Shown here: piece by piece, positions 21,016 to 36,726 of the stretch | How the letters are laid out: the number at the start of each line of letters is the position of its first letter | Numbering within the stretch: the stretch's first letter is position 1 | Origin: an uncultured Alphaproteobacteria bacterium | GTDB lineage: Bacteria; Pseudomonadota; Alphaproteobacteria; RF32; CAG-239 | Length of the DNA stretch: 64,000 nt | Direction of reading: 5' to 3' | NCBI GenBank assembly: GCA_944390355.1 | Contig: CALXPT010000001.1 | Location: 175,507 to 239,506 of the forward strand | Made by a program: the position numbers and the translations under genes | The notes under the pieces: generated by a model | What the model was told of the DNA's origin: nothing | The model's input: the letters and a program-made list of their open reading frames with translations, nothing else | The model's database searches: none

Positions 21016-21090
21016 GCCGCCGTAGCTCAGTGGTAGAGCACGTCATTGGTAATGACGGGGTCGTAAGTCCGATTCTTATCGGCGGCACCA
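21016..21090 (+). tRNA. tRNA-Thr (anticodon GGU)
   Basis: Manual fold. Acceptor GCCGCCG/CGGCGGC. D-arm GCTCAGTGGTAGAGC. Anticodon loop TTGGTAA. T-arm. Encoded CCA. Confidence 0.85.
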
Positions 21091-22623: not shown

Positions 22624-22742
22624 GATGTTACTCCTTTGTTTTTACATTACATTTATTATGTCGTGTTATTTTGGGAAAGTACGCAGTTATTTTCAGTTTC
22701 TTGCAATTTTTTTACTAACAAATTACTGATATTTCAAAATGT

Positions 22743-22799
22743 TAACCTAATTCCCAATTGGAACGAGGTTATAAAAAGTTATTGTCGTTAACGTCACGA
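22743..22799. repeat. Composite site: 27-bp imperfect palindrome (AACCTAATTCCCAATTGGAACGAGGTT) plus TTATTGTCGTTAACGTCACGAA motif; left direct repeat of the module
   Basis: Near-identical arrangement at 27960-28030. Related 27-bp site at 26461-26487. Confidence 0.6.
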
Positions 22800-22844
22800 A
22801 GTTAAAAAATAACCTCTGCTAAAATTTACAGAGGTTTGAGGTAT

Positions 22845-23030
22845 TCAAGGTGATTTAGTGTCATTAATGTCCGTTAGTTGTTTTTCAGATTGCTTTGCAT
22901 GATAAACAGCCTTTGCTCCTAAATAGAAAAAACGGATTAATTTGTTAGTCATTTCAGTTAATTCATCATCCGTAAAATCGGGATAATAAATCTTTAATTC
23001 TTCTTTTATTTCATTAAACGTATCAATCAT
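22845..23030 (-). CDS. Small hypothetical protein
   Basis: 61-aa ORF, no clear RBS. Weak. Confidence 0.2.
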   Translation of the reverse strand: MIDTFNEIKEELKIYYPDFTDDELTEMTNKLIRFFYLGAKAVYHAKQSEKQLTDINDTKSP

Positions 23031-23229
23031 AATAATTATATGTCGGGATTGAATAAATATGTAAAACAGGAAACGAAAAATTTTAATTTCTAGCAGATTT
23101 TAGTTTATAGTATGTGTACGTTTAAGGTTTCTTTATTGCTTAATTATATTTTAATTGTTAGAATTACATTAAGATATGCATAAAAGAAATATATATAAAA
23201 AATTTACTATTCCATATTAAAATATAAAG

Positions 23230-24228
23230 TTGAGGAATATTGTGTGGAACAATTTTAGATTTATAGATTTATTTGCAGGTATTGGTGGAATAAGGCTTGG
23301 CTTCGAAGCTGTTGGCGGTCGTTGTGTTTTTTCTTCAGAATTTGATGAGGATGCTTGTAAGACATACGAAGCTAATTTTGGAGAACATCCATCTGGTGAT
23401 ATTACAAAAATAAATGCCGCAGATATACCAGACTTTGATATTCTTTTAGGCGGATTTCCTTGTCAAGCCTTTTCTATAATTGGAAAAAAAGAAGGATTTG
23501 CAAATGAAACTTGTGGGACTTTGTTTTTTGATATTGAACGAATATTAAAAGAAAAACGACCAGCTGCATTTATGCTAGAAAATGTAAAAAATCTTACGGC
23601 ACATGATGGCGGAAAGACATTTAAAATTATAAAAGAACATTTAGAACATTTGGGGTATCATATATACGCAAAGGTTTTAAATGCTATAGACTTTGGTGTG
23701 CCACAAAATAGAGAGCGTATAATAATCGTGGGTTTTTTAGAAAATGTAAATTTTCATTTTCCAGTACCTGTCTCAATTGAAAATCGCAAAGTATTAAAAG
23801 ATATATTAGAGCAAAATGTTGATAAAAAATACTATGTGAATGACAAAATTAAAAAGTCTAGATTGGAGAGACTAAAAGACAAAAATTATCCTAAACCTTA
23901 TATTTCTCATGAAAATATGGCAGGTTCTGTTACTCCACATCCTTATTCTTCTGCTTTAAGAGCTGGAGCATCAGCAAATTATATATTAATTAATGATGAA
24001 AGACGTCCTACTGAAAGAGAAATGCTAAGAATACAAGGCTTTCCTGATAGTTTTAAGATTGTACTTCCATATAGTAAAATAAAAAAGCAATGTGGAAACT
24101 CCGTTGCTGTCCCCGTTATTCAAGCTGTTGCTCGAGAAATGATTAAAGCTTTAACTTCACCAACAAGGATAAAAAACAATTCTAGCAAGAGTTCTTGTGA
24201 TTATTTAAAACAAGGAGTTTTATTATGA
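23230..24228 (+). CDS. DNA cytosine-5 methyltransferase
   Basis: 332 aa. Motif I FAGIGG, motif IV GFPCQAFS, ENV motif. Start TTG 23230 or GTG 23242 after GAGGAA. Confidence 0.85.
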   Translation: MRNIVWNNFRFIDLFAGIGGIRLGFEAVGGRCVFSSEFDEDACKTYEANFGEHPSGDITKINAADIPDFDILLGGFPCQAFSIIGKKEGFANETCGTLFFDIERILKEKRPAAFMLENVKNLTAHDGGKTFKIIKEHLEHLGYHIYAKVLNAIDFGVPQNRERIIIVGFLENVNFHFPVPVSIENRKVLKDILEQNVDKKYYVNDKIKKSRLERLKDKNYPKPYISHENMAGSVTPHPYSSALRAGASANYILINDERRPTEREMLRIQGFPDSFKIVLPYSKIKKQCGNSVAVPVIQAVAREMIKALTSPTRIKNNSSKSSCDYLKQGVLL

Positions 24229-25277
24229 GTATATACGATGATGCCAAAAAGGCATTAGACACAGTATTAAACAAATCAAGAGTACATTTATACAAACCGA
24301 TTCAAATTGCTGAAATTTTATATCATGATCGTATATACAAAGATATAAATCTTCTGAATTTAGAAGATTACAGAAATAAAAGTAAAAAATGGCGAGATGA
24401 TATATGTATTCAATTATTAGGTAGGGTATGTACTAGTAGTGCAAAATTCCAAGACAATTTGTTTGAAACTAACGCTCTTCCTCCAAAATTTATCAATGCA
24501 CTAGGCATAAAAAACAGAGAAACACATGGAGCTATTGAAGCATATATATACAACAAATTTATAGCAAAACACAGTCAATTGTCCTCGGCATTATCGTACT
24601 GTATAGATTCGACTATTAGCACTTTTGATGTTAAGCATTTAATAGATTCATTTTGGTGTGAACCTGGACTTAAGCGTAGCTTAGATAAAATTTATGAAAT
24701 TATCGTGTATGCATTATTTGCAACATTAGTGGAAATTTTGGAATTTAAAGTTCAAGTACATGTAGAAAAAAAGCATTTAGACTTACTAGATGATTTTTCT
24801 GAATTTGCACAAAAAGTGATGTGTATAGACTTTCAAAATCCCCAATATATTCAAGATGCAAGAGTGTATCGTGTCGGAGTGACAAATGCAGCCGATAGAG
24901 GTTTGGATATGTATTCTAACTGGGGACCTGCTATACAAATAAAGCACTTAAGTTTAGATGTCGAGCTTGCTGAAAATATAGTAAATAGTGTATCATCTGA
25001 TAGAATAGTAATTGTTTGTAAAAATGCAGAAAAAGATGTTATTTTATCTCTTCTAACTCAGATAGGTTGGAAAAGTAAAATACAAAGTATTATTACAGAG
25101 AACAACTTAATTAATTGGTACGAAAAGGCATTGCGAGGAAAATTTGCTAAAATTATCGGCCAAAAATTATTAGACCGTTTAAGAGATGAAATTATCAATG
25201 AATTTCCTCCCATTAATAATATTCCTGATGTTATAAAAAATCGTCATTATGATAAGATATCAATAGAAATGTTATAA
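24225..25277 (+). CDS. Putative Type II restriction endonuclease partner of the C5-MTase
   Basis: 350-aa ORF overlapping MTase stop (ATGA). No fold-level motif confidently seen. Confidence 0.45.
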   Translation: MSIYDDAKKALDTVLNKSRVHLYKPIQIAEILYHDRIYKDINLLNLEDYRNKSKKWRDDICIQLLGRVCTSSAKFQDNLFETNALPPKFINALGIKNRETHGAIEAYIYNKFIAKHSQLSSALSYCIDSTISTFDVKHLIDSFWCEPGLKRSLDKIYEIIVYALFATLVEILEFKVQVHVEKKHLDLLDDFSEFAQKVMCIDFQNPQYIQDARVYRVGVTNAADRGLDMYSNWGPAIQIKHLSLDVELAENIVNSVSSDRIVIVCKNAEKDVILSLLTQIGWKSKIQSIITENNLINWYEKALRGKFAKIIGQKLLDRLRDEIINEFPPINNIPDVIKNRHYDKISIEML

Positions 25278-25639
25278 ATTTAACTATTCTTTGTTTCTAT
25301 TAATAAGATAACTTCTAGTTCAAATCTGGAAGTTATTTTTTACTATTCGACTTAAAGATTTATCATCCTAGAATCGTAGCAAAATGTTACCAAGAACGTG
25401 AGTTTTAGGGGCTCGCGGATGGGAAAATATACTGCATAATATAAATAGTTAATGAGTGAAACAACTATTTATGAAAGGAAAAACAATGTGGCATGTAAAA
25501 TTAAATAATACAATTCTTCCAACGCCTTATCAATATTTTAGCGATTGTCTTAAGGAATGCAAAAGACTGCAATGGGTTATGGTTGCGGTATGTACTGAAC
25601 CTGTATTTGTTGACTAATTTGGTATCAAGGAGATTTGCT

Positions 25640-25909
25640 ATGTTAAAAGATTTTGAAAACTGGTTGCTAAATAATAATTACAGACCTACCACCGCTTTTG
25701 ATTATCAAGGAAGAATTGAAAGATTATGTCGTGCTGAAGGTTATACTTTGTCTCATTTGGTTGAAAACATTGCTTTGATTTTACCTGAATATGAAATTAA
25801 CGGTAAAAAATCAAGTTATGGTAAAAGAAGCCATACTTCAGTTAGACAAGCCTTAAGACGTTTTAAAATGTTTTTGATATCAAATAAATTAATTGAAAGT
25901 GCAAACTAA
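25640..25909 (+). CDS. Small hypothetical protein
   Basis: Strong RBS AAGGAG before ATG 25640 (ORF-track start 25583 less likely). Stop overlaps next start (ATGA). Confidence 0.4.
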   Translation: MLKDFENWLLNNNYRPTTAFDYQGRIERLCRAEGYTLSHLVENIALILPEYEINGKKSSYGKRSHTSVRQALRRFKMFLISNKLIESAN

Positions 25910-26226
25910 TGACTGATATCAAAACATTAAATGATAACTTTAGAAGAACCTTTAGCGGTGGAGGAGTTATGTTAACTTGTGGAATTAATGCCAAAAATCA
26001 AAGTGAACAGGCTGAAATTCTTAATCAAGTTAGATGTTTTAATAATTTTACCACCGCCAATGAGCCGTATAATGAACATGATTTTGGAAGTTTTAACTAC
26101 AAAGGAGAACAAATTTATTGGAAAATTGATTATTATGATAAAAATTATCAATTTTGTTCAGAAGATCCAAGTAATCCAAATATAACTAACCGAATTATGA
26201 CGATTATGTTATCTCACGAATATTAA
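25909..26226 (+). CDS. DUF3768-like small protein
   Basis: 105 aa. N-terminal pattern LNDNFRRTFSGGGVMLTCGI resembles the DUF3768 family common on plasmids/ICEs of alphaproteobacteria. Confidence 0.4.
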   Translation: MTDIKTLNDNFRRTFSGGGVMLTCGINAKNQSEQAEILNQVRCFNNFTTANEPYNEHDFGSFNYKGEQIYWKIDYYDKNYQFCSEDPSNPNITNRIMTIMLSHEY

Positions 26227-26330
26227 AACAATTTAGTCCGATTTGAGTAATATCAAGTCGGATTTTTTATTATTGATAATTTAACTTCTTAACATCAACG
26301 ACAACAAGTTATTTTAAACATCTCATTTTT

Positions 26331-26401
26331 TAACCCGTGGATACAATCGTTTTATTTGATATAGGTTTTATTACTTTTATTAAATTCGGATATCCACGGG
26401 T
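26331..26401. repeat. Inverted repeat AACCCGTGGATA ... TATCCACGGGTT (12-13 bp arms, about 46-bp spacer)
   Basis: Seen directly. Lies downstream of the HUH Rep gene. Candidate hairpin origin/nick region. Confidence 0.5.
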
Positions 26402-26460
26402 TGTTTATGGAGATATGGGATATAATTTTATAAGATATTTATGAAATTTCAAATAATTAA

Positions 26461-26487
26461 CCTAATTCTCAATCGGAATGAGGTTGT
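26461..26487. repeat. 27-bp imperfect palindromic site (AACCTAATTCTCAATCGGAATGAGGTT)
   Basis: Related to sites at 22743 and (inverted) 27960. Confidence 0.55.
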
Positions 26488-26662
26488 TTTTTATATCATA
26501 CTAACTTCACAATACAACTTTTGCAAAATTCAGCAGAAGTTAAACATAATAATACCTATTTACAATGTGTTATAACTTTTCAAAAGAATCTGATATAATT
26601 GTATTGTCGTGAATTTTGGGATTTGTAAACGGTTAAACTTCCATTATGATGTTTTTTATAAT

Positions 26663-27658
26663 TTAGTTTCTTTGAGGATTAAGATTAAATAAGTCTTCAG
26701 AAAAAATCATATGGTCATTATCAAATTTACCATTCCAATATATTTTTATTTCTTTCATACAATAATAAGTAACATTTAACAATTTTGGTTCAATTGGTTT
26801 TAAATTCATGCAATATGACGGTAAGTTTTCTCTCATCATTGCTTGAAAAATAGCATCTTGGAGTTCTTGTTCACTAAATCTTCCTCGATTAAATAATATA
26901 TGAAAATGCCAGTCCGAACTTATTCCATTTTCAGCAAATGCAATAAACCGAAGATGGTGATGCTCCCAATTGTTCATCAAACTCTTTTCAAATGCTTTCA
27001 TAATGTTTCTTAAATGACTAATTGAGTTATATAAATCTTTAGTCTTCTTGTTTTCTGGTAGTTGTACAGTTAAAAAATGAGTCGGTTTATATTCTTTAGC
27101 AATCCATTTATTTAATCTTTTTTTTATCGTGGAAGAATTTGTTGCCTTTTTTCCTTGAGACACAGATTTTATGATATTACCCATTTTTTGACTGTAGGAA
27201 TCAGTGTTTTTATTTGGTATAGGTTCGATTGCTTTTATATCATTTTGTAGTTCATGGGTTGTTTTAGGCTTGTTTATGCTCGTGTTTTGGTTAAGATTTT
27301 CATTATTAGCACATCTGGAGATATAAGAGAGTGTATTAACTATTTTCTGTATATAGTTTATTTTATTTTGCTTGAGTTTTTCATTATAAATACTCTTAAA
27401 TTTATTATAAAAACCATTTAATAAAGAAGAATTAACTAAATAATCCTTAAAAGAAATACCATATTCAATAAGAAAAGGACTCAATTTTACTTTATCAATA
27501 ACAGAAATTAATCCATATCTTCTTATAATACCTAAGACATATACATAATCATCAATACATCTTGTTGCATGACTTATTGACAATTTTAACATCTTGTTTT
27601 CTGTCATTATCTCTTGCAACCATATTCTTTCATATTTGTATTTATTCATTTTTATCAT
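26663..27658 (-). CDS. HUH-endonuclease (rolling-circle Rep/relaxase-like) protein
   Basis: 331 aa. HUH motif WHFHILF preceded by HLRFIAFAENG. Tyr candidates in YYCMKE. Flanked by inverted 27-bp sites and TTGTCGT repeats. Confidence 0.5.
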   Translation of the reverse strand: MIKMNKYKYERIWLQEIMTENKMLKLSISHATRCIDDYVYVLGIIRRYGLISVIDKVKLSPFLIEYGISFKDYLVNSSLLNGFYNKFKSIYNEKLKQNKINYIQKIVNTLSYISRCANNENLNQNTSINKPKTTHELQNDIKAIEPIPNKNTDSYSQKMGNIIKSVSQGKKATNSSTIKKRLNKWIAKEYKPTHFLTVQLPENKKTKDLYNSISHLRNIMKAFEKSLMNNWEHHHLRFIAFAENGISSDWHFHILFNRGRFSEQELQDAIFQAMMRENLPSYCMNLKPIEPKLLNVTYYCMKEIKIYWNGKFDNDHMIFSEDLFNLNPQRN

Positions 27659-27959
27659 CCAATTAGTATTTATTTAAGTTATTAATTTTATTTATTTTTT
27701 TAATAATAATTAAGTTATTTTTTGATATAAAAATAACAAAGGCCGCATGAATAAAAGCTTCCTCGTATCCCGAACTGATGAAACAGTTATACCAAGATTA
27801 TGGTGGATTTTGGTAATCGGTTTATAATGATACATTTAAATAGAATTGTTTTTTTCACAAAATCTAATGATAAAATTTCTTAAAGATAAAAATTTTTTGG
27901 TTTTACATTTTTGTTTTCCATGACATTATACATATAAAATCACATAAAAATAATGAGTT

Positions 27960-28030
27960 AACTTCATTCCAAATAAGAATTAGGTTGTTGGGTTATTTTA
28001 TAAAAAAGTTATTGTCGTTAACGTCACGAA
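27960..28030. repeat. Composite site (27-bp palindrome inverted relative to 22743 copy, plus TTATTGTCGTTAACGTCACGAA); right direct repeat of the module
   Basis: 24-nt motif identical to 22776-22799. Confidence 0.6.
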
Positions 28031-28447
28031 CTTTTAACATCTGAATATCAAAGGTTGAAATCATTAAATGACATTGATGTCGGTTAATCAACTTTTGTAA
28101 AAATTTGCAGAAGTCTATTTGAAAAATAAAAATCAAAGAAGCTCTCTCGCACGCAAAGGCCTTGACTAAAATTCGCTTAACAAAAAAACTAATCTTATCC
28201 AGTATGGTACGGCATAGTATGGCAGTATGGTATCCATGGAGGGTGTAGATGTCGGGCATCCTTTATGGCGGTGGAGCTATCCCGTTATGCTTATGCCAGT
28301 CCGATATTAAAATAAAGAGACAAAGACGGTTAAATCCTTGCCTCTCTATATATCTGTGCTATACAGTTTTTGAACTCCGAAGTTATATTGTCGTGTTATT
28401 TGCCAAATCGGAGCGGTAAAAACTCAACCTGTGCGTAAGTTGATAAA

Positions 28448-28930
28448 TTAAAATAAATCAAGTTGCTGATCTTTTTCTATATGCTTAATATTTAAAATAG
28501 AATCTATTTGTTTATTATTTACAACCATACCATCAATAACTACAAAAAACTGTTTATTTAAATTTTTCATAAGCATTATATTATTTAATGTTCCTTTGCT
28601 TTCTCCATCCCATATCATTAATCCATAATCCGTGTCATTAGCCATCTGTTCATCTTTTAAAGTGTATAAATTACGACCTTTCTCATTATGCAAAGCATAG
28701 ACATTCTTAGTTTGCCACTGTCCTACATTGTTCCTTATAGTTTTACCTGCATAATATACAAAGACATTTTGATAATTTTTCTTAAACAAATATTTTTGAA
28801 TACTTAAATCAACCCCTTTAGCATCACCAACTAAAATGGTAATATTCTTAGATATAATATTATCAATTTTTTTTACCGCAGATAATGGTAATTTCTTTAT
28901 GCTAATAGATCCAGAAATAAAAACTTTCAT
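28448..28930 (-). CDS. SLOG/DprA-LOG-like Rossmann domain protein
   Basis: 160 aa. ILVGDAKGVDLSIQKY resembles the GxAxGxD motif of DprA/Smf/YpsA-type SLOG domains. Start overlaps PRTase stop (ATGA). Confidence 0.45.
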   Translation of the reverse strand: MKVFISGSISIKKLPLSAVKKIDNIISKNITILVGDAKGVDLSIQKYLFKKNYQNVFVYYAGKTIRNNVGQWQTKNVYALHNEKGRNLYTLKDEQMANDTDYGLMIWDGESKGTLNNIMLMKNLNKQFFVVIDGMVVNNKQIDSILNIKHIEKDQQLDLF

Positions 28931-29574
28931 TAATCAGAAATCCTTGTTTTGGTTAAGGTAAAAACAGATATGTTATTATACCCGTTTTCCTTTAAAGCAT
29001 CCACATAAGCTCTCAACGTATTTCCACTATCAAAAACATCGTCAAAAATAAGATAATTATTATCCTTATTCAACAAAGAATAACGGATTGAAAGAGAATT
29101 TTTAACTTGTGCATATTTATCTTGTTCATCAATATTTTTAATCTGTTCTATATTTGTGGTATCCAAAGCATTAAATAAAAATTGTTTATTAAAAGTTTCT
29201 GATATTCCTTTGGCTACTTCAAATACAGGTTGAAAAGGACGAGCCTTATTAGATGGTGGAACTATTAAAATTGTATCTATGTTTGCTATAAATTTCTTAA
29301 AATCTTCCGAATTTGATAACAATTCAAGAATCCTTGTTACAGCAGAAAGATTATAACGATATTTTAATTGGTAAACCAAATTCCCCATTTCAGTTCTTTC
29401 TGTATCAAATTTACCAACTCCATTTGAGTATTCTTCAACGAGCACACTTCTTAATGTATGTTTATCGTATGCAAAACCTAAATTCCAAGGACCATATAAT
29501 GCAATCATATTTGAATTCTCCGAGTAATTTCTTTCAGTATACATATAAAAAAAATAAAAGCAATATTTACACAA
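28930..29574 (-). CDS. Phosphoribosyltransferase (type I PRTase) domain protein
   Basis: 214 aa. PRPP-binding motif YLIFDDVFDSGNTL (compare VLLVDDVLTTGSTL in the housekeeping comF-like gene at 48170). Confidence 0.65.
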   Translation of the reverse strand: MCKYCFYFFYMYTERNYSENSNMIALYGPWNLGFAYDKHTLRSVLVEEYSNGVGKFDTERTEMGNLVYQLKYRYNLSAVTRILELLSNSEDFKKFIANIDTILIVPPSNKARPFQPVFEVAKGISETFNKQFLFNALDTTNIEQIKNIDEQDKYAQVKNSLSIRYSLLNKDNNYLIFDDVFDSGNTLRAYVDALKENGYNNISVFTLTKTRISD

Positions 29575-29627
29575 GTATTATACAGTATGATTAGTTTAAT
29601 GAAATAATTCTAATTTTCGACTTAATT

Positions 29628-29791
29628 TCTTAAAATCGTCATAGAAATTAGTCCGATAATTGCATAGTATCTCGCACCATTTTTAAGATAGCACCTTTTA
29701 AGGTGCTTTTTTGCTATATAAACCAAGCCTTTCATTCAGTCCGATTTTATATATTTTGAAATTAGCGATTTTTGTAAACTTATCGGACTTT
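29628..29791. repeat. Inter-cassette repeat element copy A (140-bp core with TIRs AGTCCGATAA/TTATCGGACT, GCACCATTT core, internal hairpin+T-run, third AGTCCGAT half-site)
   Basis: Core 29650-29789. Conserved upstream CTTAAAATCGTCATA. Copies at 31729-31868, 34206-34565 (with 221-bp insert), 36345-36598 (truncated). Confidence 0.65.
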
Positions 29792-29910
29792 GAATGAAAA
29801 AAAACAATTTCTAAGATTTTTTTATTGCATAAAGGTGTGCGAAAATTAAAAATATAAATAGATAAATGCATTTTTTTTAATATAATAAATAATATTTAAT
29901 AGTCTGTTGG

Positions 29911-30807
29911 ATGATGATAGAAGAAAACGTTAAAAATATTTTTAAGAAAAATTTCTTACCATTTTATGAAGAAAGCAATGGTGAGTTGTTTTTGGGTGAC
30001 TGCATACAAAATATGAAAAAAATCAAAGACAATACTATTGATTTAATTTTTGCAGATCCTCCATATTCTATAAAAAAAGCCAAATGGGATACATTCAAAA
30101 GCAGAGAAGAGTATATCAAATGGTCCATAAAGTGGATTAAAGAAGCTCATAGGATATTAAAAGATACAGGAAGCCTTTATATTTGTGGATTTTCTGAAAT
30201 TTTAGCAGACCTTCATTTTCCTGCAATGAAGTATTTTAAAAATTCTCGTTGGTTAATTTGGTATTATAAAAACAAAGCTAATCTAGGAAAGGATTGGGGG
30301 CGAAGTCATGAAAGTATCATGTGCTTAAGAAAGTCAAATAATTATACTATTAATATTGAGAATATTCGTATACCTTATAATGCTCATACATTAAAGTATC
30401 CGGAACGTTCTCAAGCTACAAGTAGTCAATATGGAAACGGAAAAAAATATGATGGCTGGTCACCCAATCCTGCAGGTGCAAAGCCTAAAGATGTCATTGA
30501 AATTCCAACAACATGCAATGGAATGGGCGAAAAAACGCCTCATCCGACACAAAAACCTGAAGAATTGTTAAGAAAAGTCATTCTTGCTTCTTCTAATGAG
30601 AATGATATCATTTTGGATCCATTCTCAGGCAGTGGAACAACTGCTGTTTGTGCAAAACAGCTAAAGCGCCGCTGGATTGGTATTGAACAATGTCCGGAAT
30701 ATCTCGAATGGTCAATAGCTCGCTTAAAAAAGGTTCCTGATAAAAATATTGAAGACTGGATTAAATATGATAAAGATGTTTCAAAAAGAAGGGAAGCTAT
30801 TAGATGA
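29911..30807 (+). CDS. N6-adenine/N4-cytosine DNA methyltransferase (beta class)
   Basis: 298 aa. DPPY catalytic motif (FADPPYS) followed later by AdoMet motif DPFSGSGTT. Confidence 0.85.
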   Translation: MMIEENVKNIFKKNFLPFYEESNGELFLGDCIQNMKKIKDNTIDLIFADPPYSIKKAKWDTFKSREEYIKWSIKWIKEAHRILKDTGSLYICGFSEILADLHFPAMKYFKNSRWLIWYYKNKANLGKDWGRSHESIMCLRKSNNYTINIENIRIPYNAHTLKYPERSQATSSQYGNGKKYDGWSPNPAGAKPKDVIEIPTTCNGMGEKTPHPTQKPEELLRKVILASSNENDIILDPFSGSGTTAVCAKQLKRRWIGIEQCPEYLEWSIARLKKVPDKNIEDWIKYDKDVSKRREAIR

Positions 30808-31691
30808 AAACACTATGGGAAATTATGTCTTGGGTATCCCAAAAAGAAAAATTTACAAATATCAAAGACTATATTAATTTTGCAAAAGTTTATTTAGAAT
30901 TCATTTCCTCAGAACTACAGGCTGAGATTGTTGCTAAAAACGAAAATAATTATAAATTTTTGCAATATAGAAGAGATGGTGAATATAATATCACCAGACC
31001 AATTAATGGAAACTTATTTATGAGTTCTGATAAATATGATGAGTTTTCAAAGAGATTTATTGAAATATTAAATAATATAAAAAATATTAAACATGACTTT
31101 GCATTAAGAAACGATATTAATAGCTTTATTTATACAACGCAACAATCTATTGGTTGCGCCTTAGATGCTCTTCCTTCGTCTAAAACAAATACATCAAGAA
31201 AAGTTAATGGAGATTTATTTGAAAGATTAATGCAGCTTATCATTGCTCAATTAGGTTTTGATATAACATCTGAAACTTTGGGAGTAAAAATTCCTCAATC
31301 AAATGAAATAATGAATTACCAAAATGATATAGAAATCAAAATTAAAGGAGAAATTGTTGCCATTGGCTCTGTCAAAACTTCAAGTAAAGATCGAATAGAT
31401 AAAATTTTTCTTGATAAACTAATGTATAATAGACTAACGGCTACAGAAACGCCTCATTTTGCGATTTTTTTACATGATGTTCAACGAGCTGGAAAAGAGC
31501 CCGAATATAAAATAGGTCAAACATTTTTAACAGGACACTTTAAGGCCTATACAATAGGTTTAAATCCCCTTGATGGAGTATATTACTGTGATTTACGACC
31601 GATTATGAAAACAGATAACTTATTGAAAAGACATATTCAATCTTTAGATTGTCTTCTTTGTCAAGATATATGGAATTTTGTTTCTAAATAA
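30804..31691 (+). CDS. Putative Type II restriction endonuclease (PD-(D/E)xK-like)
   Basis: 295 aa. Overlaps MTase stop. Candidate D...DIEIK motif. Confidence 0.45.
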   Translation: MKTLWEIMSWVSQKEKFTNIKDYINFAKVYLEFISSELQAEIVAKNENNYKFLQYRRDGEYNITRPINGNLFMSSDKYDEFSKRFIEILNNIKNIKHDFALRNDINSFIYTTQQSIGCALDALPSSKTNTSRKVNGDLFERLMQLIIAQLGFDITSETLGVKIPQSNEIMNYQNDIEIKIKGEIVAIGSVKTSSKDRIDKIFLDKLMYNRLTATETPHFAIFLHDVQRAGKEPEYKIGQTFLTGHFKAYTIGLNPLDGVYYCDLRPIMKTDNLLKRHIQSLDCLLCQDIWNFVSK

Positions 31692-31728
31692 TTTTCTTAC
31701 TCAAAAGCTTAAAATCGTCATAGTTTTT

Positions 31729-31868
31729 AGTCCGATAATTGCACGGTATCTCGCACCATTTTTGATAATGCACCGATTTAGGTGCTTTTTTTGTATATAT
31801 TCCAAGCCTTTCAGAGAGTCCGATTTTTGAGTTTTTAAAATTAGAGATTTTTGATGAATTATCGGACT
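31729..31868. repeat. Inter-cassette repeat element copy B
   Basis: Same TIRs, GCACCATTTTT core, hairpin GCACCGATTTAGGTGC+T-run. Extra AGTCCGATAAAA half-site at about 31915. Confidence 0.65.
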
Positions 31869-32055
31869 TTTTGTGCAAACGCTAAGAAAATCAAGCTTTT
31901 TAGCATTTCAAATTCTAGTCCGATAAAATTTAATATAAACAATCTCTCAAACGAACATTTTTAGAACATTATTGTTGATTTTTAACTTTTTTACTTTATG
32001 ACTTGTAATAAGTATGGTAATTTTCTTAATAGAATCACTGTTAATGAGTTGAAAT

Positions 32056-32895
32056 ATGAAAAAAAATAACTTGGTCGTTCCTTTTGTTAAATGGGCTGGT
32101 GGTAAAAGGCAATTACTTCCAGAACTGATAAAACGTGTTCCGAAGTTTACTACATATTGTGAACCTTTTGTCGGAGGTGGTGCGCTGTTCTTTTATTTAC
32201 AACCGAAAAAAGCCATTATTAATGATTTTAACAAGGATTTAATTAATACTTATATCACAATACAAAATGATGTTGAATCGCTGATACAGCATTTATCCAC
32301 TTACAAAAATGATTCTGAAAGTTACTACAAAATAAGAGAGTTAGATAGAACACCTTTATTTCATAGAATGTCTGCTACAGAAAAAGCTTCCCGACTTATT
32401 TATCTTAATAAGACATGTTATAATGGACTATTTAGAGTCAATAGTATGGGTGAATTTAATTCTCCCTTTGGAAGTTATAAGTCTCCGAATATTGTCAATG
32501 AACCAACTCTTCGTGCTATTCATAATTATTTTCAAAATGCAGATGTTACATTTCTTAGTGGGGATTTTGAAGCAGCTGTTAAAGGATTAAAGAAAGGAAC
32601 ATTTGTTTATTTTGATCCTCCTTACGATCCTGTTTCCGCATCTTCAAATTTTACAGGTTATACTAATCTTGGATTTGGAAAACAAGAACAGAGAAGATTA
32701 AAAGAAGTATGTGACGAATTAAATGCAAAAGGTATTAAATTTTTGCTGTCTAATTCTGCTACTGATTTTATTTTAGACCTATATAAAGAATATAATATTG
32801 AGAAGATATCCGCTAAAAGAGTTATAAATTCCAATGCTAACAATCGCGGTAATGTTGATGAGGTTTTAATAAGAAACTATGACGAAAATAAATAG
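32056..32895 (+). CDS. Dam-like N6-adenine DNA methyltransferase (alpha class)
   Basis: 279 aa. N-terminal FVKWAGGKRQLL and DPPY motif. Confidence 0.85.
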   Translation: MKKNNLVVPFVKWAGGKRQLLPELIKRVPKFTTYCEPFVGGGALFFYLQPKKAIINDFNKDLINTYITIQNDVESLIQHLSTYKNDSESYYKIRELDRTPLFHRMSATEKASRLIYLNKTCYNGLFRVNSMGEFNSPFGSYKSPNIVNEPTLRAIHNYFQNADVTFLSGDFEAAVKGLKKGTFVYFDPPYDPVSASSNFTGYTNLGFGKQEQRRLKEVCDELNAKGIKFLLSNSATDFILDLYKEYNIEKISAKRVINSNANNRGNVDEVLIRNYDENK

Positions 32896-34159
32896 TTATT
32901 GGAACAATATTTTTGAAAAATATAAAATATTAGATCAAATTGATAAAGACGGAAAATTTGAAATTTCAGCAAGTCAGATAAATGAGTTTAAAGAAGCTCG
33001 TCTTATGACGAAATTTGATAATGCATCTCAATTGCCGCGAATTTTTACGGAAAATGAATTATCAATTTTACCGATAACACGCGGTAACTATGTAATTGCT
33101 CCGATGGATATTTTTCACAAATTTCCAATGATTGAATCTTCGAATGAAATTTCGTATTTTAATTTTCCTGATAATATACAAACATTATTGCCGGATAATA
33201 TCAATAGTGAATCTTTAGCTTTAAATGCTGTTTATATTTCAGAAATTTTAGAAGATTTTATACAAGATGAAAAATTATTGCCTACCATTAATGGTAGAAT
33301 GTCATCATCATTATTTAATTTTAACATTAAAAACACAAAAACGGAAAAAATCTTAAATATAAATGTAAACAATGCACAGATAGAAATAGATGCAGGTTAT
33401 GAAGGTGTAGAATCTTTTTCTATTATTGAAGCTAAATCGCATTTTGCTGATGACTTTGTTATTAGGCAACTATATTATCCTATGCGTCTATGGTCTAGTA
33501 GGGTAAGAAAAAATATTAAAACCATATTCATGGTTCATACTAATGGGATTTACTATTTGTATGATTTTAAATTTAATGACTTAAATAATTATAATTCATT
33601 GACTTTAAATAAATTCAAGAGATATAGCTTTGATAAATTGGAAATTAATATTGAAGACATCGAAAAGATAGTCTCAAATACGCATTTAGTAAATGAACCG
33701 CAAATTCCTTTTCCTCAGGCTGATAGTTTTGAACGTATTATAAATTTATGCGAACTATTAAATCAAAGAGAGTTAACAAAAGATGACGTAACAATGGAAT
33801 ATGGTTTTGATAAAAGGCAAACAGATTATTATTTAAATGCGTGCAAATATTTAGATTTGGTTGAAGAAAGAGATAGTAAATTTTTATTATCATCAACGGC
33901 AAGAAGAATAATGCAACAGTCGCCAACAACAAAACAGTTAGCTTTTGCAAAGCAAATACTGAGTCATCCTGTTTTTAGTGAGGTGTTGAAAAAACAATTG
34001 GAAACAGGTAAAGTTTTATCAAAACAACAAATAATTGATATAATGAAGAAATATCCTTTATTTAATGTAAAAACATATAACACTTTTTATAGAAGATCAT
34101 CAACCGTAAGCTCTTGGATTGATTGGATAACTTCATTGACATCAAATACTACTGTTTAA
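32879..34159 (+). CDS. Putative Type II restriction endonuclease partner of the Dam-like MTase
   Basis: 426 aa. Overlaps MTase 3' end. Candidate IEIDAG...IIEAKS PD-(D/E)xK motif. Confidence 0.45.
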   Translation: MTKINSYWNNIFEKYKILDQIDKDGKFEISASQINEFKEARLMTKFDNASQLPRIFTENELSILPITRGNYVIAPMDIFHKFPMIESSNEISYFNFPDNIQTLLPDNINSESLALNAVYISEILEDFIQDEKLLPTINGRMSSSLFNFNIKNTKTEKILNINVNNAQIEIDAGYEGVESFSIIEAKSHFADDFVIRQLYYPMRLWSSRVRKNIKTIFMVHTNGIYYLYDFKFNDLNNYNSLTLNKFKRYSFDKLEINIEDIEKIVSNTHLVNEPQIPFPQADSFERIINLCELLNQRELTKDDVTMEYGFDKRQTDYYLNACKYLDLVEERDSKFLLSSTARRIMQQSPTTKQLAFAKQILSHPVFSEVLKKQLETGKVLSKQQIIDIMKKYPLFNVKTYNTFYRRSSTVSSWIDWITSLTSNTTV

Positions 34160-34205
34160 TTAACTCCAGATTATATGCCAACTGCTTAAATTCATCATAG
34201 TTTTC

Positions 34206-34565
34206 AGTCCGATAACTGCATAGTATCGCGCACCATTTAACACAAAAGCCTCCGTTTGGGGGCTTTTGTGTTAAATGCATGAACGCTATTGAAGCGGACT
34301 TACGGGGGCAGAGTAAGTCCGGAGCGGGTAGTTGGTGAAAACAAGTGTAGAGCTTTAGCGAATAGCTTAGCGAAACACGAAGTTTGAACCTTACGGCGCG
34401 AAAGGGACCCGTTGGCTCAAAGCCAATGGGAATATACATTCTTATCGGCGGCACCATTTTTAGAATGCACCGATTGAGGTGCTTCTTTTATATATATTCC
34501 AAGCCTTTCCAAAAGTCCGATGTTGAGAATTTTTAATTTGATAATTTTTGTAAACTTATCGGACT
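34206..34565. repeat. Inter-cassette repeat element copy C, interrupted by a 221-bp segment that ends with a copy of the tRNA-Thr 3' end (attR-like)
   Basis: TIRs at 34206-34215 and 34556-34565. Insert flanked by GCACCATTT direct repeats (34230-34238 and 34451-34459). ATTCTTATCGGCGGCACCATTT at 34438-34459 equals tRNA 21072-21093. Confidence 0.65.
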
Positions 34566-36232
34566 TTTGTATGATTATCTAAGAACTCAACAAAATCTTT
34601 CGCTTGTTCCGGCGTTACATTTTTATTTTCATATTTTTGCGGAGGATAAAAGTTTTCTACTAGAGATGTTGGCGCTCTCTTGATATTTCCCCAATATGGA
34701 GCTTTACCGCTTAAATAATCATAAACACTCATTCCTTTTGAATCTTTCAGATTTATGTTCGCCCCTTTTTCTACCAGATATTTTGCTATATCCAGATGTC
34801 CTTCTTGCACGGCATACATCAAGGCCGTACGTTCTCCATTTGCAATGCAAATATGTTCCCAACAATTATTATCTTCTAAATTTCCCTTCTTTGTTTGAGC
34901 ATTGATATCCGCTCCGGCTTCAAGCAAAATTTTTACGCTTTCCATAAATCCATATTGAGCTGCATACATTAAAGCTGTTTTGCCAAATTCATTTTGAGCA
35001 TTGACATCCGTATTTAAGCCTATGCAATTCAATTTTTTTTCATTATTAGGGCAAGCTTCAATCAATACCTTTAATGCATCCGGTCGGTGTATGCTTACCA
35101 TTAAAATTTCATCTTTTTGATCCGGCGTTTCAGGTTCTGTAAAGACTTCCCCTTTTATTTTCTTATTTTCAATCCACGTTTTAATTTCCTGAACAGGAAC
35201 TCCTGAAAAAATCTTATAACGCAACGTGTCTTCATCAACAATAGAACTCTGTGCTGCCATTGGAATCATCGTGTAACGAGCATAAGAGTAAGCTTTTTCT
35301 TCAGAAACCTGAAATGTTTTTACATAATGTTTTGTTAGTTTCTCAACAGCTTGATTAAAGCCTATTCCATGTTTTATAACTTCATCAAAATATTTATAAT
35401 TCGGATATGATTCCATTGCCCATGCTTCAAGAGGCAAAGCTTGCAAATATTTTTGATCCGGATAATAACGACGCTCAAAGTTCCAATCCGGATCATAATG
35501 GCTTAAAATATTTTCATAAATATTTTTTGCCATATAAACATAACGTATTGAGCCTGGGTTATAAAATTCGAGTTCTCGTTGAATATAGTTATAATATTCT
35601 TCAACATCTGCTGGAAATTCATATTGAGGATACTGACTGCAATCTGAAATATCTAAAGTTTCTGCACCGTGACCACCACCAGCACTATCTAAAATAGCTG
35701 TTAAATGCAGTTTTTGTGCTGTTTTGCATGGGACAACAATTTTCCATGGAACATAACGCATATTTGTACTTTGCTGGTTCCATATATTGAAAAATTTTGA
35801 AAAATTAAACACTCCTACTTCTATTAAACAACTTAAATCTTTGTAACATTTCATATAATCATTCTTGATTAACTCTTCATTTTTATGCTGATACATTCTA
35901 TAAAACGGAGAATCAGGAACAACTTTTTCATATTGTGCAATGACATCTGTATGTAAGCGATGAGCTATTTTCTCAAATTCTGGCGTATTTACTTTTTGAG
36001 GTTCATATATACTAAGCAATATTAAATATTCGATAGCCGCAGAGTTATTTTTATCTGCTAATTTTTTTAAGTCTTTTATGGCTTGTTGGGGATTATCTTT
36101 TATATGTTTTACAATATTTTCATACTGTTTATCAATATCTTGTTCTATTTGTTCAGCTGTAACAAGAGAGGAGAAAAAAAGAAATGCAAAACAAATCATA
36201 AAAATTATTTTTTTAGCTCGAAACAAAATCAT
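34556..36232 (-). CDS. Secreted ankyrin-repeat protein
   Basis: 558 aa. Signal peptide. At least three ankyrin repeats (GKTALMYAAQYGFMESVKILLEAGADINAQ; GERTALMYAVQEGHLDIAKYLVEKGANINLKD). Confidence 0.8.
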   Translation of the reverse strand: MILFRAKKIIFMICFAFLFFSSLVTAEQIEQDIDKQYENIVKHIKDNPQQAIKDLKKLADKNNSAAIEYLILLSIYEPQKVNTPEFEKIAHRLHTDVIAQYEKVVPDSPFYRMYQHKNEELIKNDYMKCYKDLSCLIEVGVFNFSKFFNIWNQQSTNMRYVPWKIVVPCKTAQKLHLTAILDSAGGGHGAETLDISDCSQYPQYEFPADVEEYYNYIQRELEFYNPGSIRYVYMAKNIYENILSHYDPDWNFERRYYPDQKYLQALPLEAWAMESYPNYKYFDEVIKHGIGFNQAVEKLTKHYVKTFQVSEEKAYSYARYTMIPMAAQSSIVDEDTLRYKIFSGVPVQEIKTWIENKKIKGEVFTEPETPDQKDEILMVSIHRPDALKVLIEACPNNEKKLNCIGLNTDVNAQNEFGKTALMYAAQYGFMESVKILLEAGADINAQTKKGNLEDNNCWEHICIANGERTALMYAVQEGHLDIAKYLVEKGANINLKDSKGMSVYDYLSGKAPYWGNIKRAPTSLVENFYPPQKYENKNVTPEQAKDFVEFLDNHTKVR

Positions 36233-36344
36233 GTTATGTCCCTCTAATTATATCATTAATTTTAGCTTAGATTGAAAACATTAAAATTTTATTATGATAA
36301 GTTTTAACTTTCCTTATTATTTTCTTAAAATCGTCATAAAAATT

Positions 36345-36598
36345 AGTCCGATAACTGCATAGTATCGCGCACCATTTAACACAAAAGCCTCCGTTTGGGG
36401 GCTTTTGTGTTAAATGCATGAACGCTATTGAAGCGGACTTACGGGGGCAGAGTAAGTCCGGAGCGGGTAGTTGGTGAAAACAAGTGTAGAGCTTTAGCGA
36501 ATAGCTTAGCGAAACACGAAGTTTGAACCTTACGGCGCGAAAGGGACCCGTTGGCTCAAAGCCAATGGGAATATACATTCTTATCGGCGGCACCATTT
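36345..36598. repeat. Repeat element copy D (left TIR + 221-bp segment + second tRNA-Thr 3' end copy); island right boundary
   Basis: 36320-36600 is identical to 34180-34460 (about 280 bp). ATTCTTATCGGCGGCACCATTT at 36577-36598. Degenerate half-site AAGTCCGAT at 36652. Confidence 0.65.
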
Positions 36599-36726
36599 TT
36601 GATATTTCCGCCTAAATGGTGGATTTTTTTATTTTTAAATAAATGCTTGTCAAGTCCGATTAATTTATTATTTGACTTTAACAAATACTATATGTAGGGT
36701 ACTAAATATAGAGCACGGAGAGGACT

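Follow-up and report, generated by a model that had tools for sequence, protein, structure and literature searches.

A cassette island at a tRNA-Thr gene of an uncultured gut alphaproteobacterium, probably built through a large serine integrase

Introduction

The closest described precedent for the locus presented here are the ssrA islands of Dehalococcoides (McMurdie et al. 2011, PMC3146451), which lie in tandem downstream of the transfer-messenger RNA (tmRNA) gene, are each delimited by a direct repeat of that gene's 3' terminus, and have a gene for a large serine integrase, dsiB, whose 3' end always overlaps the left attachment (att) site, attL. Many of these islands have no integration module and were proposed to be mobilizable in cis (PMC3146451). 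Among the staphylococcal cassette chromosome elements (SCC and SCCmec), tandem SCC-like cassettes that lack a recombinase and are enriched in defense genes are mobilized in trans by Ccr, according to Hossain et al. (2024, PMC11470126). The tycheposons of Prochlorococcus (bioRxiv 10.1101/2020.12.28.424599) integrate into tRNA genes, push older elements inward, and leave remnants with fragmented integrases and partial tRNAs; a minority of them have large serine recombinases and many carry replication genes. Finally, cis-mobilizable elements (CIMEs) are flanked by att sites, have no recombination genes, derive from deletions, and are mobilized by the integrase of a neighboring element (concept cited in PMC3146451). 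Here we describe a locus of this general kind in a 64-kb stretch of contig CALXPT010000001.1 from an uncultured alphaproteobacterium (the window, analyzed over its whole length of 64,000 nucleotides). An initial annotation had pointed to an integron-like array of four repeats there. We consider it likely that this array (29628-36660) belongs to the distal portion of an accretion island of 15.3 kb (21094-36377; 15,284 bp) at the 3' end of a tRNA-Thr(GGU) gene, built through site-specific recombination by a large serine integrase.

An accretion island with exact junctions

The window is contained in an ENA metagenome contig of human-gut type. Using the gene on the right flank as a lookup, we recovered nine further arrangements of the locus; these, like all sequences compared in this work, are metagenome assemblies. 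In one of them (L008) the island is missing. Its sequence corresponds to the window after removal of 21095-36377, the flanks being 99.2 to 99.6% identical, and reads from the tRNA gene directly into a 221-bp segment, a second core belonging to a partial tRNA copy, and the flank. The 221-bp segment (8984-9204 in L008) is therefore native DNA that is duplicated in the window, and the native locus already has two cores. It had first been taken for an insertion between direct repeats, which the empty site shows to be the wrong direction; on the same evidence we rejected it as an insertion or small mobile element.

Throughout, T denotes the arm formed by the tRNA, X the 221-bp segment, T' the incomplete copy of the tRNA with which X ends, F the native chromosomal flank, L and R the left and right arms of the repeat, and R' the 3' end of the integrase gene, so that the two native junctions are T/X and T'/F. 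The window reads T/R', integrase element, L/R, methyltransferase and endonuclease cassette, L/R, Dam and endonuclease cassette, L/X, T'/R, ankyrin cassette, L/X, T'/F. Over all loci we found T/X, T'/F, T/R', T/R, T'/R, T'/R', L/X, L/F, L/R, and L/R', and all these types diverge from each other precisely at GCACCATT(T), a core of 8 to 9 bp that is the GCA-CCA 3' end of tRNA-Thr and whose opposite strand encodes the integrase residues K-W-C. This comparison bounds the crossover position to within GCACCATT. We read each copy of the repeat as a recombination junction, in which a left arm (T, T', or L) meets a right arm (X, F, R', or R) at the core. The earlier proposal that GCACCATTT is a recombination core shared with the tRNA crossover site, with the serine recombinase as the obvious enzyme, agrees with these data.

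That the region is an array of cassettes was borne out by the strain comparison, in which gain and loss occur exactly at the core. Another strain (L011) equals the window minus the 2,477-bp Dam and endonuclease cassette (31762-34238), and the same cassettes are found elsewhere in different positions. In L005 the integrase element occupies the secondary site (T'/R' ... L/F) and the ankyrin cassette lies on its other side relative to the window; the element is also in the secondary site T'/F in L023 and L035, and the left arm there was classed as T' in L038 too. In three arrangements (L004, L007, and L012) a Fic/helix-turn-helix (HTH) cassette is followed by the ankyrin cassette, the two being joined by L/R. 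Assembly artifacts across repeats would be a trivial source of such differences, since all assemblies are from short reads, one contig (L002) breaks inside the island, and a 277-bp repeat (see below) could mislead assemblers. However, the same cassette order was assembled independently from separate samples (L003, L006, and L011), the alternative arrangement recurs as well (L004, L007, and L012), and the same junction grammar is found in 35 species-level metagenome-assembled genomes and more than 100 metagenome contigs, so that we give this explanation hardly any weight.

A protein-guided scan of species-representative genomes gave these 35 loci, nearly all labeled as uncultured gut Alphaproteobacteria, and the integrase or a remnant of it abuts tRNA-Thr(GGU) in at least 27 of 30 related loci (ARAGORN scan). 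Scanning metagenome contigs with the L-arm pattern gave 103 stretches, 80 of which entered a junction census: L/x 67, L/R 21, T/x 15, T/R 11, L/R' 9, L/F 7, T'/F 5, T/R' 4, and T'/R 4, where x is a right arm without AGTCCGAT (X-like, R-like, or F-like in sequence, with a hairpin in all but a few). In a clustering of 138 inter-junction segments, one and the same cassette could follow the tRNA, another cassette, or an integrase element (clusters c0, c4, c5, c6, c7, c8, and c10). The methyltransferase and endonuclease cassette of the window lies directly at the tRNA in two loci (L113 and L131, 85% identity), a cassette of 920 bp comes after the tRNA, after either of two other cassettes, or after integrase elements, and another is present at both the primary and the secondary site. 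Copies A and B of the repeat, previously suspected to be deletion products, are instead L/R junctions that join adjacent cassettes occurring singly elsewhere.

Cargo consists mostly of restriction-modification and other defense genes. The island of the window has three type II restriction-modification pairs and a phosphoribosyltransferase (PRTase) resembling ShosT/PsyrT, and the cassette contents assigned beforehand were correct: the ShosT/PsyrT-like PRTase, an N4/N6 DNA methyltransferase (MTase) with a type II restriction endonuclease (REase), a Dam-like MTase with a type II REase, and an ankyrin protein. In related loci we found NERD nucleases, AbiEii-like ATPases, GIY-YIG proteins, Fic proteins, type I and II restriction-modification systems, HamA with a helicase, and KAP NTPases, together with an APH-like kinase, a YgjV membrane protein, and proteins without assignment. 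The kinase, an APH-family phosphotransferase (Pfam PF01636, E value of 9e-10), is carried by L053 (positions 647-1768) and L103 (cluster c13); cargo is thus not limited to defense, and a resistance function is possible.

Arms, core, and half-site motif

Sequence counts in the window put the repeats on firm ground. The 33-nt left block AGTCCGATAAYTGCAYRGTATCKCGCACCATTT occurs in four exact copies (29650, 31729, 34206, and 36345; 0 mismatches, chance expectation 0), with no fifth copy in the 64 kb when up to 3 mismatches were allowed. The motif AGTCCGAT occurs 20 times against 1.25 expected, and GCACCATTT 7 times against 0.8, at the tRNA 3' end (21085) and at 29674, 31753, 34230, 34451, 36369, and 36590. 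The four copies that had been delimited (A to D) are real and nonrandom, except that copy D has no right arm. The terminal inverted repeats (TIRs) ascribed to all four fail at the right end of D, where TTATCGGACT is missing, and the combination of CTTAAAATCGTCATA block, GCACC-n5-GGTGC hairpin with T-run, and third half-site holds for A, B, and C but not for D, which past its second core continues into native flank with a different hairpin (CCGCC..GGTGG) and a lone half-site. Copies C and D have 277 nt in common at 97% identity; within these lies the GC-rich 221-bp segment, whose final letters, ttcttatcggcgGCACCATTT, duplicate the tRNA-Thr 3' end. True conservation of an inverted pair is seen for AGTCCGAT-N36-ATCGGACT, 52 bp long and within the right arm; it occurs four times (starting at 21171, 29738, 31817, and 34514), the first time inside the recombinase gene.

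A family of miniature inverted-repeat transposable elements (MITEs), similar to Correia or Rickettsia palindromic elements (RPE), had been considered as the alternative, the 140-bp units being spread by transposition and supplying terminators between genes. Inverted 10-mers at the ends of A and B, ca. 140 bp apart, an internal terminator-like hairpin in each unit, and several copies within a small region would all fit, and right arms do carry terminators, as had been suggested. Nevertheless, the TIR-bounded unit dissolves on comparison, because its arms are found apart in every combination (T/R, L/X, T'/R, L/F, and L/R), the halves being joined separately to tRNA, X, or F, so that there are no fixed ends. 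Besides, the left half is open coding sequence for the integrase tail, no target-site duplication exists besides the common core, all copies in the window lie inside the island, the related loci are all tRNA-Thr arrays, and each L arm in ca. 115 of them abuts the core and a hairpin-bearing right arm, mostly of R, X, or F type. A scan of IMG/VR with the L-arm pattern gave 0 hits. On the window and the related loci scanned, we regard a MITE family as very improbable.

The L arm is a detachable coding tail of the integrase gene. In that frame the CTTAAAATCGTCATA block encodes Y-D-D-F-K and AGTCCGAT encodes Y-R-T, and the four L arms of the window match the integrase tail with tblastn E values of 8e-11 to 3e-8. 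Across 95 distinct L arms, mostly from cassettes without integrase, the frame is nearly always open, with a ratio of nonsynonymous to synonymous polymorphism (pN/pS) of 0.47 to 0.60 outside the inner half-site. In a subset of 28 L arms picked independently of the inner sequence, TATCGGACT is invariant in 28/28, third codon positions included; its Arg codon is fixed as CGG out of six synonymous possibilities, while neighboring codons vary. This invariance at synonymous sites points to a constraint on the DNA itself in addition to that on the encoded protein.

R arms from 11 species follow one plan: core, 6 to 10 nt, GCACC-n5-AGGTGC hairpin, T-run, CCAAGCCTTTCAG, and the 52-bp palindrome, which keeps its 8-mer ends (two arms have ATCGGATT at the right end) and has a divergent 36-nt spacer. 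The prototype of this palindrome is the 52-bp site in the integrase gene, which encodes SPIISEKRDILKLILSD. Translated R arms are weakly similar to the integrase C terminus (for example KSPIIHQKSLILKTQKSD, E values of about 1 to 2), and in junction A this arm resembles the 3' end of a recombinase gene in a decayed state (FIQSPISLQKSLISKYIKSD). In other species, N-terminally truncated integrase remnants of graded lengths abut the tRNA, and in L040 an R-type arm is fused to the integrase gene. On this evidence, the R arm appears to be a decayed integrase 3' end with terminator and palindrome, and the cassettes deletion derivatives. A terminator-like hairpin follows the core shortly in all right arms, native or not, as expected for anything inserted 3' of a tRNA gene.

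The left arm (T) of the primary attB is the tRNA-Thr 3' end, ..GTAAGTCCGATTCTTATCGGCG-GCACCA-ttt, in which AGTCCGAT is the T-loop region. The motif lies 19 nt upstream of the core in T and 24 nt from it in L, as illustrated by AGTCCGATAA at 29650 in junction A. In the LI integrase, the motif of the zinc-ribbon domain is offset by 5 bp between attP and attB, lying nearer the center in attB (PMC3783163). We propose AGTCCGAT(AA) as the putative binding motif of the integrase zinc-ribbon domain, on account of the matching 5-bp shift in the left half-sites, of its conservation at synonymous sites and in noncoding R arms, and of a copy that most other species have ca. 8 nt upstream of the integrase ribosome-binding site. 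The lone AGTCCGAT of flank F stands 63 nt from the core, the same distance as in R arms, and junction B has an additional half-site immediately outside, at 31917-31924. At 52 bp, the palindrome matches a symmetric attP-type site in size and may be an accessory or regulatory binding site. By eye, right half-sites have a weak TGCAT..TATC / GATAATGCA symmetry centered near A3-C5 of the core, too weak to place the central dinucleotide.

The tRNA-Thr has the T loop UCCGAUU (21064-21074), with C instead of the U of the cmscan consensus at its second position (position 55), and this is conserved in all related species. The substitution may be linked to the use of the loop as an integrase recognition motif.

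The integrase and its C-terminal tail

The integrase has the domains Resolvase (PF00239, E value of 9.5e-15), Recombinase (PF07508), and Zn_ribbon (PF13408), and R23, V24, and S25 are invariant in 46 homologues, in keeping with a resolvase-type catalytic domain that has a serine nucleophile. An AlphaFold (AF2) model of a long-form homologue (mean predicted local distance difference test [pLDDT] score of 80.7) has the catalytic domain and helix E, followed by the recombinase domain, a zinc ribbon interrupted by a long coiled coil (helices 364-411 and 417-460), and two helices at the C terminus. Its best full-length Foldseek match was the SPbeta integrase (9dxd, E value of 9.5e-19), followed by the Bxb1, phiC31, and LI integrases, so that the modeled architecture is that of a canonical large serine integrase. 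A phmmer search of PDB sequences returned only spurious RecA matches, and the protein falls below the NCBIfam cutoffs for the Ccr and XisF families (90 bits with the CcrB model, against a cutoff of 900).

The reading frame of the integrase spans the crossover core, with the stop codon inside tRNA-Thr. Homologues of 66 to 97% identity are the same up to KWC and then have a tail set by the adjoining arm: KWCR-stop, KWCRR-stop, or KWCRWQESDLRPRHYQ-stop by read-through into tRNA-Thr variants, and KWC[A/E]ILCxYRTxxY[D/E][D/E]FKxL.., for a total of 540 to 548 amino acids (aa), by reading into an L arm. Because the frame crosses the core, recombination swaps the C-terminal tail of the protein. The integrase ends in KWCRR-stop beside the tRNA and gains ca. 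30 residues (ILCxYRTxxYDDFKxL..) beside an L arm, on a circular form or behind another cassette, and this swap may modulate its activity. In distant homologues (38 to 50% identity) the Trp is nearly invariant and the tails look like tRNA read-through, with DSN/DLN motifs. In the alignment of 46 homologues (38 to 96% identity) the nearly invariant Trp codon, TGG, is the reverse complement of CCA. These alignments suggest that the whole wider clade crosses over at the tRNA CCA end within its own reading frame.

Some further observations concern the integrase gene. AGTCCGATAA stands ca. 8 nt upstream of its Shine-Dalgarno sequence, in an operator-like position, in L013, L014, L016, L017, L019, L020, L023, L025, L032, and L042; it is missing there in the window (ca. 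22630-22660) and in L018. Seven database proteins (P0045, P0049, P0056, P0063, P0067, P0075, and P0079) combine the C-terminal half of the integrase with Fic/HTH, DpnII, N4/N6 MTase, NERD, C5 MTase, or NgoFVII domains, and are probably in-frame products of cassette-creating deletions or else assembly chimeras. In L049 (ENA ERZ1307739 NODE_1761) a long-form integrase with an L/R' junction lies beside a glycosyltransferase and sugar-modification cluster rather than defense genes.

The native 221-bp segment as a candidate RNA

The segment X exists in 17 variants, and a consensus fold was built on the seven of the window type. Its 53 pairs are formed in 96.7% of the cells, against 35 to 44% with slid partners, and compensatory double changes occur in 16 pairs, against 0 to 2 in the slid controls, with G-U pairs on the plus strand. 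The segment is made up of the terminator of the tRNA, a first hairpin, an extended stem with bulges, a GC hairpin, and an unpaired tail that is identical with the last ca. 20 nt of tRNA-Thr. Rfam searches (gathering threshold for the whole window, E values of ≤10 for 34100-34650) gave two tRNAs and noise, with no family over the segment. The covariation in these seven sequences is suggestive of a noncoding RNA of ca. 170 nt.

How the array may grow

Junction anatomy, the empty site, precise presence or absence of cassettes, use of the secondary site, reuse of cassettes in new positions, and the integrase architecture are established. Beyond these, the integrase itself would make all junctions by crossover inside GCACCATT. 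A cassette would be an integrase-less derivative (R, cargo, L) that keeps both attP arms, and cassettes may be excised, inserted, and reshuffled by integrase supplied in trans. One contig of 8,570 bp (L048, ENA ERZ28578861 scaffold_2369) closes on itself, at 8,545 bp, once a poly-G artifact is removed: its first 20 nt are repeated before the terminal GGGGG, and closure restores a 335-aa open reading frame (ORF). It contains L/R', a long integrase of 545 aa, Vsr, a C5 MTase, and a Rep-like gene, and may be an excised circle or plasmid-like form.

Several points weigh against this mechanism. Canonical large serine integrases recombine only attP with attB, or attL with attR when a directionality factor is present (PMC3783163). 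Under such rules, L/R junctions within an array need relaxed pairing, composite excision, or homologous recombination; in the mechanism proposed here they would require noncanonical events of the attP x attL or attP x attR type. The circularity of L048 consists of a 20-nt end overlap and a restored ORF, and an assembly of this kind could also come from a tandem duplication; a search of all loci for small cassettes on circular contigs found none. The similarity between R arm and integrase is weak on its own and depends mainly on the common 52-bp architecture. We detected no clear inverted copy of AGTCCGAT in right half-sites, T' is used as a site although it has no AGTCCGAT motif, and the R' palindrome motif is degenerate in one variant (AGTTCGAT, L048). 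Lastly, recombination is read here from the comparison of assembled sequences.

For the shuffling of cassettes, homologous recombination deserves serious consideration. The integrase would have seeded the array, and cassettes would have been gained, lost, and reshuffled across passive L/R linkers of 50 to 180 bp after DNA uptake from relatives. Such linkers are 78 to 97% identical, the deletion in L011 has its endpoints in 55 nt over which two L arms are homologous, the 277-bp duplication in C and D resembles unequal exchange, and the missing cassette circles and the pairing of attP with attL or attR that canonical enzymes should avoid (PMC3783163) fit as well. However, T and L arms have no homology beyond the 8-mer and the core, and yet in every species the T/R and L/X breakpoints are exact. 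In L011, the L arm stays of B type through the variable position nearest the core, the same cassettes occur at T, at T', and behind different neighbors across species, and the conservation of arms at synonymous sites and in noncoding R arms argues for selection as sites. We consider this explanation unlikely, though less so than the MITE or artifact ones, and favor recombination by the integrase.

A more ambitious version is possible, but we hold it only tentatively: a dedicated cassette platform of the serine integrase that would be the integron's counterpart in function, with a conserved L-arm "tail exon," a state-sensing integrase switch, control through binding to AGTCCGATAA, and a tRNA-like RNA landing pad. 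The tail exon in every cassette would complete the integrase frame when joined to the integrase gene. The enzyme would be truncated beside the tRNA and full length beside an element arm or on a circle, and through this difference its activity or directionality would be switched with no need for a dedicated directionality factor. A further layer of control would come from integrase bound to AGTCCGATAA, both within the 52-bp palindrome and at the ribosome-binding site of its own gene, and the native segment of 221 bp would be a structured RNA of a new, tRNA-like kind doubling as second landing pad.

Features of the window

Coordinates of the junctions, genes, and arms are given in Table 1.

Table 1. 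Features of the tRNA-Thr locus and its island in the 64-kb window
Feature	Positions	Strand	Evidence or remark
tRNA-Thr(GGU) gene	21016..21090	+	ARAGORN, Rfam, sequence
Core GCACCATTT, attL-type junction T/R'	21085..21093	+	Minus strand reads AAA TGG TGC, recombinase codons K-W-C
Large serine integrase gene, 515 aa in integrated state (..KWCRR-stop)	21076..22623	-	Pfam, AF2, Foldseek, homologue tails
52-bp site AGTCCGAT-N36-ATCGGACT within recombinase 3' coding end	21171..21222		Encodes SPIISEKRDILKLILSD
Recombinase-bearing integrative element	21094..29673
Integrative element: small ORF	22845..23030	-
Integrative element: C5 MTase	23230..24228		Gene pair with HaeII-type REase
Integrative element: HaeII-type REase	24225..25277		Gene pair with C5 MTase
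Integrative element: DUF3768	25909..26226
Integrative element: Rep-like gene	26663..27658	-
Integrative element: 160-aa ORF	28448..28930	-
Integrative element: ShosT/PsyrT-like PRTase	28930..29574	-
Junction A: L arm, open recombinase-tail frame (KWC)EILCNYRTNFYDDFKKLSRKLELF	29602..29673	-	tblastn, E value of 9e-10
Junction A: core (L/R)	29674..29682	+
Junction A: R arm	29683..29800	+	Terminator hairpin 29690-29707, 52-bp palindrome 29738-29789
Cassette 1: R arm, N4/N6 MTase, type II REase, L arm	29683..31752		MTase 29911-30807, REase 30804-31691
Junction B: L arm, core, R arm	31660..31879		Tail frame to 31660, core 31753-31761, terminator 31770-31785, palindrome 31817-31868
Cassette 2: Dam-like MTase, type II REase	31762..34238		MTase 32056-32895, REase 32879-34159
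Junction C-left (L/X): L arm and core	34155..34238	-	Tail frame KWCAILCSYRTENYDEFKQLAYNLELIK; tblastn, E value of 8e-11
X segment, copy 1	34239..34459	+	Terminator hairpin, conserved structured region, T', second core 34451-34459
Junction C-right (T'/R): R arm	34460..34568	+	Terminator 34467-34482, palindrome 34514-34565
Cassette 3: ankyrin-repeat protein	34460..36368		Gene 34556-36232 on minus strand
Junction D-left (L/X): L arm and core, attR-type right end of island	36285..36377	-
Native X segment ending in T' and secondary attB core	36378..36598	+	Core 36590-36598
Native flank F	36599..36660	+	Terminator-like hairpin 36607-36623, lone AGTCCGAT 36653-36660

Three stretches of the integrase element (21085-23087, 25370-26230, and 26326-28441) make up a conserved backbone, and the slots between them are variable. 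These three slots (23088-25370, ca. 26230-26500, and 28441-29620) hold other defense cargo in other species, and their boundaries have no GCACCATT core, which indicates a second, different level of modular exchange. The direct repeats TTAACCTAATTCCCAATTGGAACGAGGTT and AAAAAGTTATTGTCGTTAACGTCACGAA (22711-22810, 26426-26485, and 28003-28040) are located upstream of the integrase and near two slot boundaries. Directly 3' of the DUF3768 gene (26235-26264), AGTCCGAT and an imperfect inverted copy at short spacing form a terminator-like hairpin, near which there is weak similarity to the integrase C-terminal peptide; this may be an old internal junction. A PHROGs search found nothing phage-like in the element besides the integrase, and we rejected a prophage on this result and the IMG/VR scan.

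Comparison with known systems

By their described architecture, the Dehalococcoides ssrA islands are similar in having a serine integrase at the left edge whose 3' end overlaps attL and whose stop codon is set by the neighbor. The target here is tRNA-Thr instead of tmRNA, and 21094-29673 holds neither a DsiA-like small serine recombinase nor the ParB/RecF-like genes of their six-gene integration module. Cassettes here are of 0.7 to 2.5 kb and single function, whereas theirs are larger, multigene, and include reductive-dehalogenase genes. The tail is conserved as protein here, while DsiB tails were reported as divergent (PMC3146451), and the present locus has, in addition, the palindrome of 52 bp and, past a structured segment of 221 bp, a secondary attB.

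With SCC, the locus has in common a large serine recombinase and tandem cassettes, some without recombinase, delimited by repeats of the att core. In contrast, the integrase is not a Ccr, there is one recombinase and no CcrA/CcrB pair, the target is the 3' end of a tRNA gene and not rlmH (orfX), and the host is a Gram-negative gut alphaproteobacterium. SCC elements also appear to be much larger than the cassettes described here. Mobilization in trans is a described feature of SCC and a putative one of the present locus. Tycheposons, in the portion of their description at hand, are cyanobacterial and mostly driven by tyrosine recombinases, and neither an att site inside the integrase frame nor conserved two-arm mini-cassettes are among the features given for them there. 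The att-flanked cassettes without recombination genes (R, cargo, L) resemble CIMEs, also in their putative derivation by deletion. The CIME concept was described for integrative and conjugative elements with tyrosine integrases; here the integrase is of the serine type, and the remnants keep defined pieces of its gene.

The initial analogy with integrons stands for function only, as an ordered array of small, independently exchangeable cassettes beside a site-specific recombinase. Cassette size and single-function content are similar, and defense cargo is also reported in chromosomal integrons (bioRxiv 10.1101/2024.07.02.601686). A true integron, with single-stranded folded attC-like sites, a tyrosine integrase, and a common promoter, would nevertheless be next to impossible to reconcile with the locus. 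No tyrosine recombinase (IntI) is encoded among the ORFs in or beside the island, where the adjacent enzyme is a serine integrase. The junction arms recombine as double-stranded half-sites of hybrid att sites about a fixed core, with no folded attC and no attI/Pc expression platform, and cassettes have genes in both orientations and their own terminator in each R arm.

In the literature on serine recombinases with tRNA-Thr islands, integron-like serine systems, and att sites within integrase genes, we found no description of this lineage; in KplE1, it is the promoter of intS that overlaps attL and not a coding tail. The locus offers a natural example of a large serine integrase array of very small, mostly defense cassettes at a tRNA gene in an uncultured human-gut lineage, with the empty site, the secondary site, and many strain variants on hand for comparison. 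With a crossover inside the integrase frame and a tail conserved as protein, it raises the question of whether a C-terminal tail set by recombination controls directionality, a central issue for large serine integrases as genome-engineering tools. The system is also a source of parts: it provides naturally occurring pairs of attP and attB, one pseudo-attB, and a collection of compact defense cassettes. Its kind is known from the systems above; what appears to be new is the host lineage, the tRNA-Thr target, and cassettes of integron size and single function in which defined pieces of the integrase gene are retained, and apparently also the exchangeable tail conserved as protein, the palindrome, and the secondary site behind a structured segment.

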